The position numbers and the translations under genes are program-made. A stretch of 64,000 nucleotides of DNA from an uncultured Candidatus Saccharibacteria bacterium (GTDB lineage: Bacteria; Patescibacteriota; Minisyncoccia; UBA6257; 1-14-0-10-44-23): contig CAYMXN010000002.1 in NCBI GenBank assembly GCA_964394435.1, positions 14,196 to 78,195 on the forward strand. Reading direction: 5' to 3'. Below the pieces are notes generated by a model that did no database searches, was not told the DNA's origin, and saw only the letters and a list, made by a program, of their open reading frames with translations. Of this stretch, positions 1 through 36,600 are shown one piece after another. The stretch's first letter is position 1. Each line of letters begins with the position of its first letter.

Positions 1-303
1 CGAACTACCCGCTAACGCCCACCGCGGTGGCGGGCGTCTTCGAAGAGAGTTCCTCCCCCCAGACGCAAGTGCCACATCCCGCAACCTACCTTCAGGCAGA
101 GCTGGCACAGGGGCATGAACACCTCCTCGATCGTAGTCAGGGCGACCCCGCCCTCGGTTTCGGTCGTGAGGACCGTGCCATGACCACAGATTGGCCAAGA
201 CAGTCTGAACTTCTTCTATAACAAAAACTGCCCTACCAGCCTCAAGTACAGGCCTTGGACGGCTTTTTGGTTGGGGCGCTCCCTGCCCTCCTCTCCTTAT
301 CTC

Positions 304-795
304 TTAGTTACTCTCACGAAACGATTCTAAAACCTCCCGAACCGTGTCCGGCGTATTGAAATTAATCCACACCCGTTGCGCCTCGTCGAAGAACGTCTGA
401 CACTCGGCTACCCACTCCGCCCGACTCGCATCAGTTGCCTGCGCACTGCGAGTCCTACCGAGGATTATCATATCGTTACTACCAAGACGCTGCCTGACTC
501 CCATCAACCACCCGAACTGCGTGTTCGCGACAAAACTCGACTTTGCAGCCGATGCAGGCAAAAGATTATAAGCCTCAACCAGCTTGTCCCCTATTTTTCT
601 CATTTGCTGACCGAACTCAGTAGCATTTCTGACGGCCGCTTCAGGGTCCACCTTGCCGCCATTACGCCGCACAACCAACTCCGCCGAAGCCGCACACTCC
701 TCTAAAATCCGCTGAAATTGACCTAACTTCTCAAGAGCTTCCGGTGAGCCACCTCCCGCCCCCGCTGCGAAACTTTTTTCACCAGGCATCGCCAT
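304..795 (-). CDS. hypothetical protein, GC-rich orphan (163 aa)
   Basis: Intact ORF in a block (1-1600) whose GC is about 55 percent and whose codon third positions are GC-biased relative to the rest of the window. No motif recognised. Confidence 0.4.
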   Translation of the reverse strand: MAMPGEKSFAAGAGGGSPEALEKLGQFQRILEECAASAELVVRRNGGKVDPEAAVRNATEFGQQMRKIGDKLVEAYNLLPASAAKSSFVANTQFGWLMGVRQRLGSNDMIILGRTRSAQATDASRAEWVAECQTFFDEAQRVWINFNTPDTVREVLESFRESN

Positions 796-824
796 ATATG
801 TAGTGAATGTTTAATAGTAATATA

Positions 825-1082
825 TTAAATCAAGCCTATCACGAACAAATCCTGTTCGCAAACCCTTATTAAAAACTCCTTTGGTGGACCCCCTCTTATG
901 AGAAAACCCGCCGAAAAGTCGCGGAAGGTCTGGCCGAGGACGCAGAGCACCCGCCGTTTGAACTCTGCCCTGCTCGCGACCACCCCTGGAGTCACAAGAA
1001 CCTTCCCCCACTGGGAACCGTCCACGTGAGTCACGATGTGTCCGTGACCACACTCCGGAATCTTGATGCTGACCTTCTTGGG
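825..1082 (-). CDS. hypothetical small protein with CGHGH motif (start taken at MPKK, 86 aa)
   Basis: GGAGGG sits 4 nt before the ATG at 1082. A TTGACA-like box lies upstream at about 1150. GC-rich codons. Confidence 0.4.
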   Translation of the reverse strand, partial: PKKVSIKIPECGHGHIVTHVDGSQWGKVLVTPGVVASRAEFKRRVLCVLGQTFRDFSAGFLIRGGPPKEFLIRVCEQDLFVIGLI

Positions 1083-1260
1083 CATGACACCCTCCGCGAG
1101 CACGCAGACTATCTGCGCACCAACCCAAGCGCAATACATATTTTAAAAATAAAAGTCAATGTCAAATCTTTTGAAGTTATTTTTCCTATAGAAAATGAAA
1201 AGGCGCCAGATCTCCCAAAGGAAACCTGGCGCGATCGTAAAGCCAACTCGCTCTTCCCGA

Positions 1261-1581
1261 CTAATCTGGGTACGTCACCACTCGAAAACGAACTTCGTAC
1301 ACCTGCTCGCCGTGCGTGAACCGCTCGACTCGCTCGGTTGCTGGCGACGCAGATTCGTACGCCTGAGCCTTTTCCTTCTCAGGAAGGAGCGAACCGAGTC
1401 CAACCGGCTCACTAAGATGAGCCCTCATTGTGCGAAACAAGTTCTGCACCGCCTCGTCTTGGCTTGGGCCGAACTCATGCACCCAGGGATACAAGCAGTG
1501 TGCCACATAACAATTGTCAGAATACGGATCTTCTTCCAGCAACCCCAAGAGTTGCACGACCGCAGCTTGGACGCTCGACAT
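1261..1581 (-). CDS. hypothetical protein, GC-rich orphan (106 aa)
   Basis: ORF with an AAGGAG-like RBS (taaggagttctctcATG) directly upstream on the minus strand. Confidence 0.4.
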   Translation of the reverse strand: MSSVQAAVVQLLGLLEEDPYSDNCYVAHCLYPWVHEFGPSQDEAVQNLFRTMRAHLSEPVGLGSLLPEKEKAQAYESASPATERVERFTHGEQVYEVRFRVVTYPD

Positions 1582-1670
1582 GAGAGAACTCCTTAAGAAC
1601 TATCTTTAGGATACTCATCCGCAAACAAAAGTAAAACGGCCGGCTCTCGAAAGAGTCGACCGTACCAATA

Positions 1671-2018
1671 CTACTTCGCAAGCAGTGGCTCGAGCCACTG
1701 CCAAAATGGGCCGCGCATCTGAAACCCAAGCAACTTGCCGACTATACTGCCATCCTTCCAGACGAGGAAAAGCGGAACAGCCTTGGCTCCATAGCGACCA
1801 ATCAACTCGCCGTTCTTCTCCTCATCTACGTCTACCCGGACGAGCTTGAACCTATTCGGGTGAAGCTCGACGAGCTCGTCGATGACCTGCGTAGCGCGAT
1901 TGCATGGACCACACCAATCCGCGAAGAACTGCACCAGTACGGGGCCGGTCGCTTTGAGCACCTCGCGCTCAAAGCTGGCATCGCCCTTTACTGCGACAAA
2001 CGGAGCTTTTGCAGCCAC
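1671..2018 (-). CDS. trxA: thioredoxin
   Basis: Canonical WCGPC active site in FFADWCGPCNRATQVIDEL. Start reassigned to the GTG at 2018, which lies 6 nt after AAAGGAGGT. The longer listed ORF would run through the upstream terminator hairpin. Confidence 0.85.
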   Translation of the reverse strand: MAAKAPFVAVKGDASFEREVLKATGPVLVQFFADWCGPCNRATQVIDELVELHPNRFKLVRVDVDEEKNGELIGRYGAKAVPLFLVWKDGSIVGKLLGFQMRGPFWQWLEPLLAK

Positions 2019-2091
2019 AGGACCTCCTTTTTGCAGCCAGAGAACAATTGCAAGATGACCTACGCGCCACGATAGATTAGTTGAGCCAGCC

Positions 2092-2124
2092 CTAAAATGC
2101 AAATCCCGCCAGCTGGCGGGATTT
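2092..2124 (-). terminator. intrinsic terminator after rplK (hairpin AAATCCCGCC-AGCT-GGCGGGATTT plus T tract on minus strand)
   Basis: Perfect 10-bp inverted repeat at 2101-2124, followed on the minus strand by GCATTTT. Confidence 0.6.
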
Positions 2125-2174
2125 GTTTAGTACTATTTCTTAACTCTTCGCTGGACACTCAGAGTCTTCGAAGA

Positions 2175-2600
2175 TTACTTCTCGACCTCGATACCCATGT
2201 TGCGGGCGGTACCTTCGATGATGCGCATCGCTGCTTCATCGCTGTTGGCGTTGAGATCTGCCTTTTTCTGTTCGGCGATTTTCTTAACGTCAGCCTTGGT
2301 TACCTTTCCGACTTTCGTCGTGAGCGGGTTTCCACTTCCCTTTTCGATACCGGCTGCTTTCTTTAACAGCGCAGAAGCTGGAGGAGTCTTGAGGATGAAA
2401 TCAAACGTGCGGTCTTCGTAGATAGTGATAACGGCTGGGATTGTGTCACCGGCCATCGTCTTAGTTGCCTCGTTAAATTTCTTACAAAAATCCATCAGGT
2501 TGATACCATGAGGACCGAGAGCGGTTCCGATTGGAGGCGCTGGGTTAGCAGCTGCTCCCTGAATCTGGAGCTTGACGACTGATTTTACTGGTTTAGCCAT
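2175..2600 (-). CDS. rplK: 50S ribosomal protein L11
   Basis: 141 aa. [42 protein letters not shown] matches L11 along its length. Confidence 0.95.
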
Positions 2601-2609
2601 ATAATTTGT

Positions 2610-3191
2610 TTATAGTTTTTGCACTTGGAGACTGTCGAGTTCGAGTACGGTATCACGGCCGAAGATTGGAATAACCACTTTGATTACTGCACTCTTCTCG
2701 TCTACCTGACTGACTTTCGCCTCCTGGTCCTTAAATGGACCGTCGGTAATTTTTACCATGTCGCCTACAGCTAAGTCAACCGTAAAGCGCTTTTCGCCAC
2801 CACCCATCTTCGCCATCAAGCTATCAACTTCAGCCTGCGAGAGTGGGAGTGGAGTGGTCGTGTCAGAGCCGACAAATCCGGTAACGCGTGGCGTGTTTCG
2901 CACTACGTACCAGCTGTCATCGGTGAGAATCATATCAACGAGCACATAACCTGGAAACGTCTTTTCTTCGATCTCCTGGCGCTTGCCGTTTTTGATCTTA
3001 ATCTTCTTTTCCTTAGGAACGACAACACTGAAAATCTTATCGCCCATTTGGAGGCTGTCGACACGCTGGTTCAAATAGCGCGCAACTGCGTCTTCATATC
3101 CAGAGTACGTGTGTACCGCGTACCAGTGGCGGCCAGTGCTTCCCTGCTGCTTACCTCCGGTCGGAGCCTTTTTGTCCTTTTTTTCGTCCAT
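2610..3191 (-). CDS. nusG: transcription termination/antitermination factor NusG
   Basis: N-terminal WYAVHTYSGYE NGN motif and C-terminal KOW (GDMVKITDGPFKDQEAKV). Conserved secE-nusG-rplK order. Confidence 0.92.
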   Translation of the reverse strand: MDEKKDKKAPTGGKQQGSTGRHWYAVHTYSGYEDAVARYLNQRVDSLQMGDKIFSVVVPKEKKIKIKNGKRQEIEEKTFPGYVLVDMILTDDSWYVVRNTPRVTGFVGSDTTTPLPLSQAEVDSLMAKMGGGEKRFTVDLAVGDMVKITDGPFKDQEAKVSQVDEKSAVIKVVIPIFGRDTVLELDSLQVQKL

Positions 3192-3205
3192 AGGAAATGT
3201 ATAAA

Positions 3206-3394
3206 TTAGACGACTAATATTTTGCCTAAGAGATAGCTAAATGCGTAATCAAATACACCCAGGTAAATAGCTACAATGAGCGCGATCGCGATGACGGTAA
3301 TCGTCAAACCACGGGTTTGCGCGAAGGTTGGCCACTGGATGGACTTAAACTCCTGCTTGGCACCAATAAAGTATTCTTTGACTCGTGAGAACAT
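3206..3394 (-). CDS. secE: preprotein translocase subunit SecE
   Basis: 62-aa protein with a single TM helix, immediately upstream of nusG as in most bacteria. Confidence 0.8.
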   Translation of the reverse strand: MFSRVKEYFIGAKQEFKSIQWPTFAQTRGLTITVIAIALIVAIYLGVFDYAFSYLLGKILVV

Positions 3395-3434
3395 ATTGCT
3401 AGAGATTATACGATAAAGTTGGACAAAAAGTCAA

Positions 3435-5492
<2,058 letters not shown>

Positions 5493-20917: not shown

Positions 20918-21125
20918 AGCGATATATCTATTATAGTACAGTTTCATTTCGCTCACGAACAAAACCGGCGCATATTGCGAAAATATGTCAAAATCTATAG
21001 AATAACGGCACGCTTCAATATCGGTAGCCAAGTGCCCCTTCTCTGCACTTCGTGACGATATTGTGGGCTCGCCAAACCGAAAGTCTTAATCAAAAGGACT
21101 GTAGGTGCTGAGCGCAGTGAAGCAT

Positions 21126-21167
21126 TGCCAGATCGCCTGCCTGCGCAGGCAGGTCTAATGGTAGGAC
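21126..21167 (+). pseudogene. duplicated 5' fragment of tRNA-Gln (nt 1-24) interrupted by an 18-bp perfect palindrome
   Basis: TGCCAGATCG[CCTGCCTGCGCAGGCAGG]TCTAATGGTAGGAC matches the first 24 nt of the intact tRNA-Gln at 21425, apart from the palindromic insertion. Confidence 0.6.
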
Positions 21168-21171
21168 TAAT

Positions 21172-21420
21172 ATGTGGCACGTCTATCTTCTAAAAAGCCA
21201 GAAACAAAAATGGTATTATGTCGGGAGTACAAACCGACTCGAAGAAAGACTTAGCGAGCATAATCAGGGTCGAGTGCGATCGACTAAGAGCTATCGTCCA
21301 CTAGATATTGCCTACGCTAAGGAGTTCGGAAGCGAGAAAGAAGCGAGAAGTTATGAGAGAATGATAAAAGACAGGCGCATACTAAAGGAAGCGATTGTAC
21401 GAGAAATTGAAGGAAGGTAA
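21172..21420 (+). CDS. GIY-YIG nuclease family protein (YhbQ/Slx1-like, 82 aa)
   Basis: WHVYLLKS...KWYYVGSTNRLEERLSEHNQG is the GIY-YIG signature. The gene fills the gap between the tRNA fragment and the intact tRNA exactly. Confidence 0.8.
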   Translation: MWHVYLLKSQKQKWYYVGSTNRLEERLSEHNQGRVRSTKSYRPLDIAYAKEFGSEKEARSYERMIKDRRILKEAIVREIEGR

Positions 21421-21424
21421 ATAT

Positions 21425-21495
21425 TGCCAGATCGTCTAATGGTAGGACAGCGGACTCTGAATCCGCGAATCTTGGTTCGATTCCAGGTCTGGCAG
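21425..21495 (+). tRNA. tRNA-Gln (anticodon CUG)
   Basis: Manual cloverleaf: acceptor TGCCAGA/TCTGGCA, D arm GTCT..GGAC, anticodon stem GCGGA/TCCGC with loop CTCTGAA, T arm CTTGG-TTCGATT-CCAGG. U1-A72 as in bacterial tRNA-Gln. Confidence 0.85.
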
Positions 21496-21551
21496 CAAAG
21501 TTAAAATAGGTTCGGAGTCCGAGGAGCTTAACAGATTTAAATAATTAAATT

Positions 21552-21953
21552 ATGAATAATTTTGAGCTGGAAGGATGGGACGAAATAAATCAAAACGGAG
21601 GTACTATTGGAACGGGTATAAATAAATCTATTCACAAGCTCACCGTTGCAATATTCAACTCTGGCTCAAAAACCTCTACTCATGTAGGTTATCTTAAGGA
21701 TAAGGTTGAACAGCTAAATAAGAATCTGGAAGAATCGAGTAAATCCTCCGATAGGAATTCCAGAGCGATGAAGTATTTAACCGGAGCTTTGGTTTTTCTG
21801 GGTATCGTGCAAGTTCTAGTAGCTTGGTTAAGCTATTCTGCCGATCGATCAATAATTGGAACTAAGAAAAATTGCTATAAAACTGCACTTCAAACTTCTG
21901 ATATAGAATTAAACTATAGAAGCTGCCTTCATAGCAATGGACTTTCAGAATAA
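21552..21953 (+). CDS. hypothetical single-TM protein in AT-rich island
   Basis: 133 aa with one predicted TM helix (YLTGALVFLGIVQVLVAWLSY). About 33 percent GC. Confidence 0.4.
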   Translation: MNNFELEGWDEINQNGGTIGTGINKSIHKLTVAIFNSGSKTSTHVGYLKDKVEQLNKNLEESSKSSDRNSRAMKYLTGALVFLGIVQVLVAWLSYSADRSIIGTKKNCYKTALQTSDIELNYRSCLHSNGLSE

Positions 21954-21977
21954 ATATGCTTCAAATAGTGTAATTCT

Positions 21978-23009
21978 ATGGAAGAAAGAACAAGTCCTAA
22001 GCAACTTAAGTCAGATACAAGACAGTGGAATTCTGGCAGGGTTCATTTTGCAGTCATTGGTTGGCCAGGAAAACCTGAGGATAATTATATTGTTTTTCAA
22101 AAAAATTTCTTTGGAAAAACGAAAAACCAAGACCAAAAATTCAATTTACGTTTTAGAGATTGGCAAAATCTCAAGAAGCTTATTGATGGCGAGTTGACCC
22201 CTATTACTGAGTGGGAAAAGACAATTTCTGTCGTTGACAAAGAAAGTCTCGAAAAACTCATAAATGATGATCCTGATATTTTTTCAAAAGTCCTAGCAAG
22301 TCCGAATATATTAAAGTTGAGCGATTCCAGCTTCGAATCTCTTGATCGAATTGCAGTAAAAATATACGAAGTTAAGGCAGAAAAAATTGATCTAATCTTA
22401 AAAAAGATAGCTGAGACGCCATCAGCAGATCTCGAAAAGTTTAGTACCCTATTGAATGATTTGAGACTAAACCAGATTTCAATGATGACCACTTTGGTTT
22501 ACCAGAAATTAAAAATAATTGATTTGCTTGAAAAAGTTATCATATCTCCTAGAAGTAAAGAAAAGGATGTACATCAGATTTTTGAAAAACACCCATGGCT
22601 TTTGGGGAGAGCTTTCGAAATCGTTTCAAGTGATAAGGCGCTTATAAATTATCTAGAAACAAATTTACAAGAAGACCCAGAAACCCGCGTAAGACCTGAT
22701 ATAATCGCCAGCACTATTCCTTACACAAATGATGTCGTAATTATTGAACTTAAAAAACCAGGGATTAAACTTAAGGCAAAACATATTGGACAAGTCCTGG
22801 AGTATAAGGCATTAGTACAAAGACATAAGCCAAATGTAAAGAATATAAATTGTTTTGTTTTTGGTTACGAGAAAGATACCACTTTTACTTTTTCAAAAGA
22901 TGCAACAATAAAGACTTTCTCAGAATTAGTATCAGAGCTTAGGCATGAATACAAAGAATATCAAAAAGTATTAGATGTAGGAAAAGATCTTGAAGTAGAA
23001 AATTTATGA
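21978..23009 (+). CDS. PD-(D/E)xK nuclease-domain protein, Shedu(DUF4263)/NERD-like candidate anti-phage defense protein
   Basis: C-terminal region KEKDVHQIFEKHPWLLG...RPDIIAS...NDVVIIELKKP...QVLEYK shows the D...E-x-K restriction-endonuclease-fold motif and the hPWLlG element I associate with DUF4263. The N-terminal 200 aa were not recognised. Confidence 0.55.
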   Translation: MEERTSPKQLKSDTRQWNSGRVHFAVIGWPGKPEDNYIVFQKNFFGKTKNQDQKFNLRFRDWQNLKKLIDGELTPITEWEKTISVVDKESLEKLINDDPDIFSKVLASPNILKLSDSSFESLDRIAVKIYEVKAEKIDLILKKIAETPSADLEKFSTLLNDLRLNQISMMTTLVYQKLKIIDLLEKVIISPRSKEKDVHQIFEKHPWLLGRAFEIVSSDKALINYLETNLQEDPETRVRPDIIASTIPYTNDVVIIELKKPGIKLKAKHIGQVLEYKALVQRHKPNVKNINCFVFGYEKDTTFTFSKDATIKTFSELVSELRHEYKEYQKVLDVGKDLEVENL

Positions 23010-23107
23010 TATTCCGAAAAATGGTGAAGTGATAAGATTATTGTAATTATTATAAAACACTTGTGGGGGTGAGGTATGAAAATATCCAAATCCGATGAGG
23101 TCGACAA

Positions 23108-23704
23108 ATGAATAAAAACGAATTCCCTCGAGCAATTCAGTTTCTAGAAAGTTTAAATGTCTCCTACTATATCCATGCCGGATTTGCGATGCACCTACAT
23201 GGACTCCTGTCTGACCTCGATGATTTAGATGTGCGCATCGACCACCCAAATCTCGAGCAGGTTTTAAAACAAGCAAAGGAAAATTTTGCCTGCCCCGTGC
23301 TATTAACCATCGGTGGCGAATATGATAATGGGCAGTATCGCTTTGGTCGTATAGAGATCGAAGCATCAACCCCTATCGATATCTGCTCATCAATGGGAGT
23401 TATTAATGATTGGGGCACCGTCGACTTCCCTCCCTTCGCGACCTCTTCGCTGAATAGCACGGCAATCAACTATCATGGTGTGTCGGCGCGAGTTGCCTCC
23501 CCGGAGACATTGCTGTTGTATTACCTTATCTTACGCCGGAAGCAGAATAAAAATGACAAAGAAAAAATTAGAGCCCTATTTTTATCAGGGAAAATTAATG
23601 AGGATCGATTCCGCGCGCTCTTAAAAAATAACAAACATGAATCTCAAATCCTAAACCTATATCGGTATTATAAAAAAATAGCTTCTAAACCTAGGAATAA
23701 GTAG
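23108..23704 (+). CDS. nucleotidyltransferase, Lnu/ANT-like (Pol-beta superfamily)
   Basis: VSYYIHAGFAMHLHGLLSDLDDLDVRID follows the hG[GS]x9-13Dh[DE]h NTase signature. Overall pattern resembles lincosamide/aminoglycoside nucleotidyltransferases. Confidence 0.5.
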   Translation: MNKNEFPRAIQFLESLNVSYYIHAGFAMHLHGLLSDLDDLDVRIDHPNLEQVLKQAKENFACPVLLTIGGEYDNGQYRFGRIEIEASTPIDICSSMGVINDWGTVDFPPFATSSLNSTAINYHGVSARVASPETLLLYYLILRRKQNKNDKEKIRALFLSGKINEDRFRALLKNNKHESQILNLYRYYKKIASKPRNK

Positions 23705-24575: not shown

Positions 24576-24989
24576 ATGAGGTGTACTTTGAAGCGTTCCT
24601 TTCTGCTCGCACTCGCGCTGATCGTGATGGCACTCGGCTTCCTGAACTCCCCGCTGGTCGAGCCGGCCAACGCTGGCGGCTTCACCATGCTGCTGCCGAA
24701 CACCCCGGTGTTCTCGATTGGGGTCTGGAGTCTGGAGACCGACGACTTCAAGTCGGTGGTCGTCCCTGCGGACCGGGCCGCCGACCTCTGCGCGGCGCTG
24801 GGCATCTCCATAAGCCAGGGCACGTTTAGCACGGCGGCCCAGGTCGTCACACTCAACCCGAACGCCACGGCGATCGTGACGTGCGATTGTCAGCCCACCC
24901 AGGGCCTATCCACGTACTGGGGAGTCCAGAGTACGTGCTGGCAGGACCAGTACGCACAGTTCTCTTTCGAGCAGGTCAACACACGCTGA
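24576..24989 (+). CDS. secreted Cys-containing small protein, GC-rich cassette B
   Basis: Signal peptide (..LLALALIVMALGFLNSPLVEPANA), mature domain with CDC...C...C. GC is about 62 percent. Terminator follows. The start could instead be the TTG at 24588. Confidence 0.5.
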   Translation: MRCTLKRSFLLALALIVMALGFLNSPLVEPANAGGFTMLLPNTPVFSIGVWSLETDDFKSVVVPADRAADLCAALGISISQGTFSTAAQVVTLNPNATAIVTCDCQPTQGLSTYWGVQSTCWQDQYAQFSFEQVNTR

Positions 24990-35796: not shown

Positions 35797-35878
35797 TTAG
35801 GATATTTTCGAAAATAAAAACAGCCCAGTGACAGACGCTTGCGCGTATGCACCGGGCTGAACAGGGCCGAACTGCTGA

Positions 35879-36562
35879 CTACCCCTTGCCCCCTGGAGGA
35901 GGCGCGAAGGCGGCGATCGGAGTCCAGCCGAGCAACTTGTCACCTGGCTTGGACCCCTCCGGACCCTGGATCATCGGGAGCGGATCGGTCCGCTGCCCGA
36001 AGTTGAGCTCGAAGCCCGTCGCCAGACGCGAGATGAGCACGTACTCCTTCTCCTGCCCCACCGGAGCCGTGGGCAGGACCGTCGCCCCGTTGAGGACCCA
36101 GGCGCGGCGCTTGTCGCACGTGCCGACGTTGCCGCAGACCTTGACCCAGCCCGCCTCGCCGACCTGCAGCGTCGCCACCGTGAGGTGGTAGAACTGCGAG
36201 GGAACGACGGCCGGGACCGGCTTGGACGACTCGCTGGGCGACTTCATCGCCGGCACCGTCGGGCAGTCCATGTCCGACTGCGGGAGACCCGGTACGGTCG
36301 GAGCCATGAGCCACTCGTTGAAGCCCGAGGCCTCCTTGGAGTTCGGCGAGGACGTGAACGTCTTCACCGCCTGCTTCGTCTCCTTGTCGTCGCCGCTGTT
36401 CCAGCAGAGGCCGACGATGATGACGATGATCAGGACGATGATACCCCCGATCGCCACGAGGCGACCGCGGGTGATCCCCCCGGGCACCTCGTGCGGGACG
36501 GGGTCGCCGCCGGACGAAGCCGGGGCGTGGGGGTCGTGGGAATCGTGGGAATCGGCGGACAC
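35879..36562 (-). CDS. single-pass membrane protein, very GC-rich cassette E (about 66 percent GC)
   Basis: His/Asp-rich cytoplasmic N-terminus, TM helix LVAIGGIIVLIIVIIVGLCW, Pro/Cys-containing ectodomain. AGGAGG 5 nt before a GTG. Strong promoter immediately upstream. Confidence 0.55.
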   Translation of the reverse strand: MSADSHDSHDPHAPASSGGDPVPHEVPGGITRGRLVAIGGIIVLIIVIIVGLCWNSGDDKETKQAVKTFTSSPNSKEASGFNEWLMAPTVPGLPQSDMDCPTVPAMKSPSESSKPVPAVVPSQFYHLTVATLQVGEAGWVKVCGNVGTCDKRRAWVLNGATVLPTAPVGQEKEYVLISRLATGFELNFGQRTDPLPMIQGPEGSKPGDKLLGWTPIAAFAPPPGGKG

Positions 36563-36600
36563 AGACACCTCCTTATTGGACTAGAGACATAGCCGTTTTG

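Follow-up and report, generated by a model that had tools for sequence, protein, structure and literature searches.

A probable divergent Type 1A Shedu nuclease gene downstream of tRNA-Gln in an uncultured Candidatus Saccharibacteria bacterium

Introduction

Shedu (SduA) is a validated, single-gene family of anti-phage immune nucleases, and two of its members are among the closest described systems to the gene reported here, an open reading frame (ORF) of 343 amino acids, ORF343, in a 64,000-nt stretch of contig CAYMXN010000002.1 (assembly GCA_964394435.1) from an uncultured Candidatus Saccharibacteria bacterium. This whole 64-kb stretch is referred to below as the window. In the Shedu protein of Bacillus cereus B4264 (SduA, Type 1A; PDB 8TI8/8TI9), the active site consists of E204 (motif I), D249 (motif II), E264/K266 (motif III) and Q295 (motif IV), and the N-terminus is predicted to adopt an sPC4/Whirly/PUR beta-beta-beta-beta-alpha fold, which defines Type 1A, the largest class (Gu et al., bioRxiv 10.1101/2023.08.10.552793). 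A conserved arginine of this N-terminal domain, R29, is needed for immunity (Gu et al.). The same study explicitly lists GHKL and receiver fusions among the Shedu architectures, and places 602 Shedu genes within Type I-IV restriction-modification (R-M) operons, with transposable elements frequently associated (Gu et al., bioRxiv 10.1101/2023.08.10.552793). In the second protein, E. coli SduA (PDB 8PS4), the N-terminus is a novel clamp that binds the ends of double-stranded DNA (Loeff et al., bioRxiv 10.1101/2023.08.10.552762).

Bacteria of the candidate phyla radiation (CPR), or Patescibacteria, have few detectable defence systems per genome according to a computational survey, and some of their systems are perhaps invisible to current tools (PMC12259885). 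The original prediction for this locus, made from the DNA letters, described an AT-rich, horizontally acquired defence islet encoding a Shedu/NERD-like PD-(D/E)xK nuclease. Our analysis indicates that ORF343 is probably a divergent Type 1A Shedu (SduA) single-protein immune nuclease, composed of a PUR/sPC4/Whirly-type domain, a helical linker and a DUF4263-like PD-(D/E)xK nuclease domain.

Results

ORF343 (21978-23009, + strand) has homologs in at least 115 clusters at 90% identity, with a near-constant length of about 345 aa, and these come from groundwater, soil and similar metagenomes. The named homologs are found in Parcubacteria-type CPR (Yanofsky-, Ryan-, Adler-, Doudna- and Roizmanbacteria) and in metagenome-assembled genomes labelled 'Saccharibacteria'. 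Within this clade, identity of 44-100% extends over the whole length of the protein, the putative sensor domain included. Conservation was read from an alignment of 38 family members (A1) and from a second one of 47 sequences, down to 17% identity (A2). An exhaustive search of 1.84 billion representatives with a hidden Markov model returned 937 relatives at E<=1e-3.

The C-terminal nuclease domain (residues ~189-343; 22542-23006, + strand) is supported by motif conservation, motif spacing and a predicted local distance difference test score of about 90 in the AlphaFold2 model. The complete set of PD-(D/E)xK motifs is present, all encoded on the + strand: motif I at E195 (22560-22562), motif II at D241 (22698-22700), motif III, E-x-K, at E257/K259 (22746-22754) and motif IV at Q272 (22791-22793). 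In A1 the invariant columns are E195, W207, G210, R239-P240-D241, E257, K259, Q272 and Y276. In A2, E195, W207, D241, E257, K259, P261 and Y276 are invariant, and Q272 is conserved in at least 90% of the sequences. The strings KHPWLLG, RPDIIAS, VVIIELKKP and QVLEYK, which had led to the nuclease assignment, are all present and fall on the A1 columns from W207 to Y276. Motifs I and II are 46 residues apart and motifs II and III 16 residues apart; for B. cereus Shedu the two distances are 45 and 15. The predicted fold of the nuclease domain lies nearest to the solved Shedu structures, and NucS/EndoMS and HSDR_N score lower structurally. At the profile level, the Pfam family SduA_C (PF14082, DUF4263) was matched individually by 28 of the 38 family members (E<=0.01), and some ORF343 homologs carry a precomputed PF14082 match. 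A distant relative (P0167) clears the SduA_C cut-off with 28.0 bits against 27, and among the distant relatives the SduA models of PADLOC were the most frequent match, with a best E-value of 2.8e-8.

The first 200 residues, which the original prediction could not recognise, may now be assigned from the model to a PUR/Whirly-type domain followed by the helical linker. The domain at the N-terminus (residues ~1-76; 21978-22205, + strand) is modelled as a beta-beta-beta-beta-alpha unit with strands at 8-17, 20-29, 32-43 and 53-58 and a helix at 59-72, after which a helical region begins. A Foldseek search with this model matched PUR-alpha and plant Whirly proteins with probabilities of up to 1.0, and a role as a nucleic-acid sensor is putative. 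The linker (residues ~77-188; 22206-22541, + strand) is modelled with low confidence at 80-140 and as a long helix at 149-189. The predicted structure of ORF343 thus has the Type 1A layout, with an N-terminal sPC4/Whirly-fold domain and then a helical linker. T14, R15, W17, G20 and R21, on strands 1 and 2, are invariant in A1, and by analogy these residues may play a role like that of R29 in B. cereus Shedu.

Distant relatives match profile positions ~55-340, that is, they have the linker and nuclease core in common and carry other N-terminal modules, which include a GHKL ATPase (~600 aa), a receiver domain, zinc ribbons and LRR-Roc-COR. Varied N-termini on a core of the ORF343 type follow the same modular pattern as described for Shedu, GHKL fusions included. 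In the GHKL-ATPase (HATPase_c_3)-fused Shedu homologs, the linker and nuclease core resemble those of ORF343 (phrog_6203, E 3.7e-23; P0159, E 3.8e-33), but the proteins are ~600 aa long and an N-terminal GHKL ATPase replaces the small PUR/Whirly domain. Conjugative plasmids carry such homologs, and they are also represented among phage protein families.

Our analysis further revealed that the gene is found in many settings. In each of 12 non-identical loci bearing the nuclease gene, its AT content exceeds that of the flanks, and none of its neighbours in the window (GIY-YIG, ORF133, ORF198 and DUF817) is present in any. No neighbour gene is common to the 12 loci, which points to a single-gene system that does not depend on a partner. 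Similarity to other copies at the DNA level runs from 21971 to 23005, from a few bases off the start codon to the stop, and the entire gene is the mobile unit. The nuclease gene moves alone, as an accessory, horizontally moving single-gene cassette. It is rare, with 11 loci found by a pattern-based, non-exhaustive scan of 185,579 species-representative genomes. A search for a phage origin gave no tblastn match in GenBank phages and only 3 distant matches in IMG/VR, and the plasmid matches were the distant GHKL-fused relatives.

Several of these settings are defence or mobile-element loci. In locus L023 (4006-9707) the gene separates the Type III genes Mod and Res, and integrases and a PIN/MazE pair lie close by. 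In L022 (4114-8391) it separates Type I HsdM from HsdS, and Fic and Bro-N genes are found in the vicinity. In both, the start and stop codons of the Shedu-like gene abut or overlap those of the R-M neighbours, which implies co-transcription with the R-M systems. In L021 the gene adjoins a BglII R-M pair, AIPR and a serine recombinase (resolvase); a 347-aa neighbour at this locus was considered as a tandem paralog and rejected (hhalign probability 0.3). In L008 the gene follows tRNA-Glu, a serine recombinase and an XRE regulator, and in L005 and L020 it stands alone amid housekeeping genes. In the window, no other defence gene adjoins ORF343.

ORF343 is under strong purifying selection. Comparison with a 91%-identical copy in L009 gave a synonymous divergence (dS) of about 1.3 and a ratio of nonsynonymous to synonymous divergence (dN/dS) of 0.036. 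These values indicate that the gene is functional and constrained, and that ORF343 and the L009 copy are not recent transfers of each other.

At the locus itself, a tRNA-Gln(CTG) gene occupies 21425-21496 on the + strand, as found by both ARAGORN and Rfam. As originally predicted, it is followed by an ORF of 133 aa, ORF133 (21552-21953, + strand), and then, 24 nt further on, by ORF343. The AT-rich islet (21497-23107, no strand) in which both lie is the lowest-GC 1.6-kb stretch of the window, with a GC content of 0.339 against a mean of 0.478 (standard deviation 0.030, 1.6-kb windows), a deviation of about -4.6 standard deviations. In 400-bp windows it is the sole region more than 3 standard deviations below the mean. 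Its right border at ~23107, where the GC content recovers at the start of ORF198, is set by composition alone. In a scan for promoters and terminators, promoter sites were below chance expectation and the + strand had no terminator.

The islet is a GC outlier, and its genes are missing in the relatives anchored on PilB. In relatives with PilB 62-77% identical, tRNA-Gln is kept directly upstream of pilB (junction seen in L027, L028, L032 and L038), none of the window genes from 21.1 to 26.4 kb is present, and the nuclease gene is missing at the orthologous locus. Similarity to these relatives stops right after the 3' end of tRNA-Gln, which marks the left border of a variable region. In L028 (PilB 76% identical), the corresponding flank contains NUDIX, TspO and a low-GC Type I R-M system. 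The divergence of the relatives beyond tRNA-Gln, together with the R-M system of L028, shows the flank to be a variable region with defence cargo in more than one lineage, and suggests that defence genes have landed there repeatedly. Within L028, positions 198-4104 hold low-GC (0.31-0.42) HsdM, three unannotated ORFs and HsdS, 2-5 kb beyond the orthologous tRNA-Gln.

A comparison of the tRNA-Gln locus among related genomes had been proposed as a means of defining the island. It gave the left border, at the tRNA 3' end; no clean right border or empty site is definable, since unrelated genes lie beyond the PilB/tRNA-Gln junction in the relatives. No empty site was found in the PilB-anchored relatives, and a search of the JGI metagenomes anchored on ORF198 gave no relatives. 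The interval from 21.4 to 26.4 kb holds no integrase. With up to 3 mismatches allowed, the tRNA-Gln 3' end occurs only once in the window, and neither the gene nor the islet is flanked by a direct repeat or target-site duplication. A tRNA-targeted integrative island is not supported here, as neither an integrase or recombinase nor a second, directly repeated tRNA 3' end was found. With no integrase, attachment repeat or empty site found, integration at tRNA-Gln remains an inference.

A separate small insertion may be recognised upstream. The first 24 nt of tRNA-Gln, with 2 upstream nt, are duplicated at 21124-21167, where an 18-nt perfect palindrome, CCTGCCTGCGCAGGCAGG, interrupts the copy. 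Directly after this partial copy stands an 82-aa GIY-YIG ORF (21172-21420, Pfam E 3.5e-16), and 4 nt separate its end from the intact tRNA-Gln. L027, L028 and L032 lack a GIY-YIG gene, and their tRNA-Gln lies about 100 nt away from pilB. The segment 21124-21424 looks like a small GIY-YIG cassette inserted into the tRNA-Gln gene, regenerating its 5' part.

ORF133 has a GC content of 0.366 and lies inside the AT-rich stretch as a neighbour, not a conserved partner, of the nuclease gene. The single transmembrane segment predicted for it was recovered as one strong hydrophobic segment at residues 76-94 (Kyte-Doolittle mean 2.1). PADLOC and NCBIfam scans of ORF133 gave nothing usable. Its family consists of small membrane proteins of ~105 aa in contexts unrelated to Shedu, and on a CPR-type contig (L024, 1045-1810) two tandem 108-aa paralogs of this family were observed.

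Other features of the surroundings were also noted. ORF198 (23108-23704), directly after the islet, is an orphan of near-native GC content with no match in Pfam, PADLOC, NCBIfam or PDB and no relatives in a JGI metagenome scan; its G...DLDDLD stretch recalls nucleotidyltransferase motifs. ORF137 (24576-24989), only 1.5 kb away from the islet, also stands out in composition (GC 0.63, more than 3 standard deviations above 0.48), and has a signal-peptide-like N-terminus and no Pfam match. A high-GC patch lies at 35800-36600 of the window (0.66-0.70 in 400-bp windows, more than 3 standard deviations above the mean).

Discussion

The Shedu half of the original Shedu/NERD-like assignment is borne out by the motifs, the predicted fold and the architecture, with SduA_C below its threshold. 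The NERD half is not, as NERD (PF08378) gave no match at E<=1 for ORF343 and none at E<=0.01 among the 38 or 47 relatives. The proposal of a horizontally acquired defence islet held in its foreign composition and patchy gene, and needs correction in two respects, as ORF133 lies outside the system and integration targeted to the tRNA is unproven.

Several observations weigh against the assignment to Shedu. The match of ORF343 to SduA_C reached 23.6 bits (E 6.4e-5), under the gathering score of 27, and covered only profile positions 2-56 of 159. PADLOC, suggested at the outset as a check, found nothing in ORF343, its SduA models included, and neither did NCBIfam. Searches of PDB sequences with phmmer, and with hmmsearch using the family profile, gave no significant match to a solved Shedu; the broad profile came closest, with 8ti8 at E 0.85. 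From the lysine of motif III to motif IV there are 13 residues in ORF343 and 29 in B. cereus Shedu. In addition, HSDR_N_2 was matched by the distant relatives in A2 as often as SduA_C, 22 of 47 each. At the level of sequence, the link between ORF343 and Shedu is weak. ORF343 shows about 19% identity to B. cereus Shedu in the nuclease domain, is shorter (343 versus 380-382 aa) and comes from a CPR/Patescibacteria-type bacterium instead of a Firmicute. With E. coli SduA it has 14% identity, and the two differ at the N-terminus, where ORF343 is predicted to have a PUR/Whirly fold instead of the clamp.

Other explanations were also weighed. ORF343 could be a stand-alone restriction-type PD-(D/E)xK endonuclease, either a Type II/IV restriction endonuclease or an HsdR-N-like module with R-M neighbours, and would then serve in defence without the sensor regulation of Shedu; we regard this explanation as unlikely. 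NucS/EndoMS and the Type I HsdR N-terminal domain (HSDR_N) have the PD-(D/E)xK core fold in common with ORF343 and give weak Pfam cross-matches, but both differ from it in domain architecture, distribution and context. It is more doubtful still that the CPR-wide clade, which shows unusual conservation along its full length, forms a distinct DUF4263 sister family missed by defence finders, in which the PUR/Whirly-type domain would sense a conserved single-stranded nucleic-acid signal of the episymbiotic CPR lifestyle instead of acting as a conventional phage-end sensor. Such signals could be, for example, DNA that enters through the neighbouring type IV pilus/competence machinery, or nucleic acids of host origin.

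A selfish, free-standing mobile nuclease gene, which like a homing endonuclease spreads by cutting target sites and confers no host immunity, would fit the finding that the DNA unit in common is the ORF alone, with flanks that are not conserved. It would also fit the many unrelated contexts, including insertions between the genes of other operons, and the apparent invasion of the same tRNA locus by a GIY-YIG cassette. However, the dS and dN/dS values indicate long-term constraint on the whole protein, putative sensor domain included, no target-site duplication or repeat flanks the gene, and fold, architecture and context agree with a validated immune nuclease family; we consider a purely selfish element very unlikely.

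ORF133 and ORF343 are co-oriented, 24 nt apart and both AT-rich, and two-component Shedu variants exist (KELShedu, PMC12577705), so that a two-gene, membrane-linked system with the transmembrane protein as sensor or effector was considered. This idea, highly improbable in our judgement, is largely refuted by lack of co-occurrence: ORF133 is missing from all 12 non-identical nuclease loci, its homologs are found without the nuclease, and the DNA similarity between nuclease copies leaves it out. ORF133 was accordingly rejected as a partner, never co-occurring at the other Shedu-like loci. A housekeeping mismatch or repair endonuclease of CPR bacteria, similar to NucS/EndoMS, is scarcely credible in view of the patchy distribution, the gene's absence at the orthologous locus of the nearest relatives, the foreign composition in 12 of 12 loci, the defence and mobile-element contexts and the lack of a NucS Pfam match in ORF343.

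If ORF343 is, as we favour, a Type 1A Shedu nuclease, its mode of action may be sketched by analogy. On the model of B. cereus and E. coli Shedu, the nuclease domains would join the protein into a tetramer; tetramer-octamer activation is a feature of B. cereus Shedu. Binding by the PUR/Whirly-type domains to a single-stranded or end-type nucleic-acid feature of invading DNA would activate the protein, and the active site E195/D241/E257/K259/Q272 would then nick or cut that DNA. The cassette would have landed here in the variable region just 3' of tRNA-Gln; in other CPR genomes it lies within R-M operons or recombinase-bearing islands.

In summary, ORF343 most likely adds a divergent, hitherto unannotated member, missed by current tools, to the known Shedu family, and does not represent a new kind of system. 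In other respects it bears out existing knowledge on Shedu. Being compact (343 aa) and well conserved, the protein lends itself to work on how sensor domains of the Whirly/PUR type switch on Shedu nucleases. The clade to which it belongs provides a concrete case of a probable CPR defence family that is missed by PADLOC and falls below the Pfam cut-off, and defence-finder databases with a profile of this clade added would give better defensome estimates for ultra-small bacteria.
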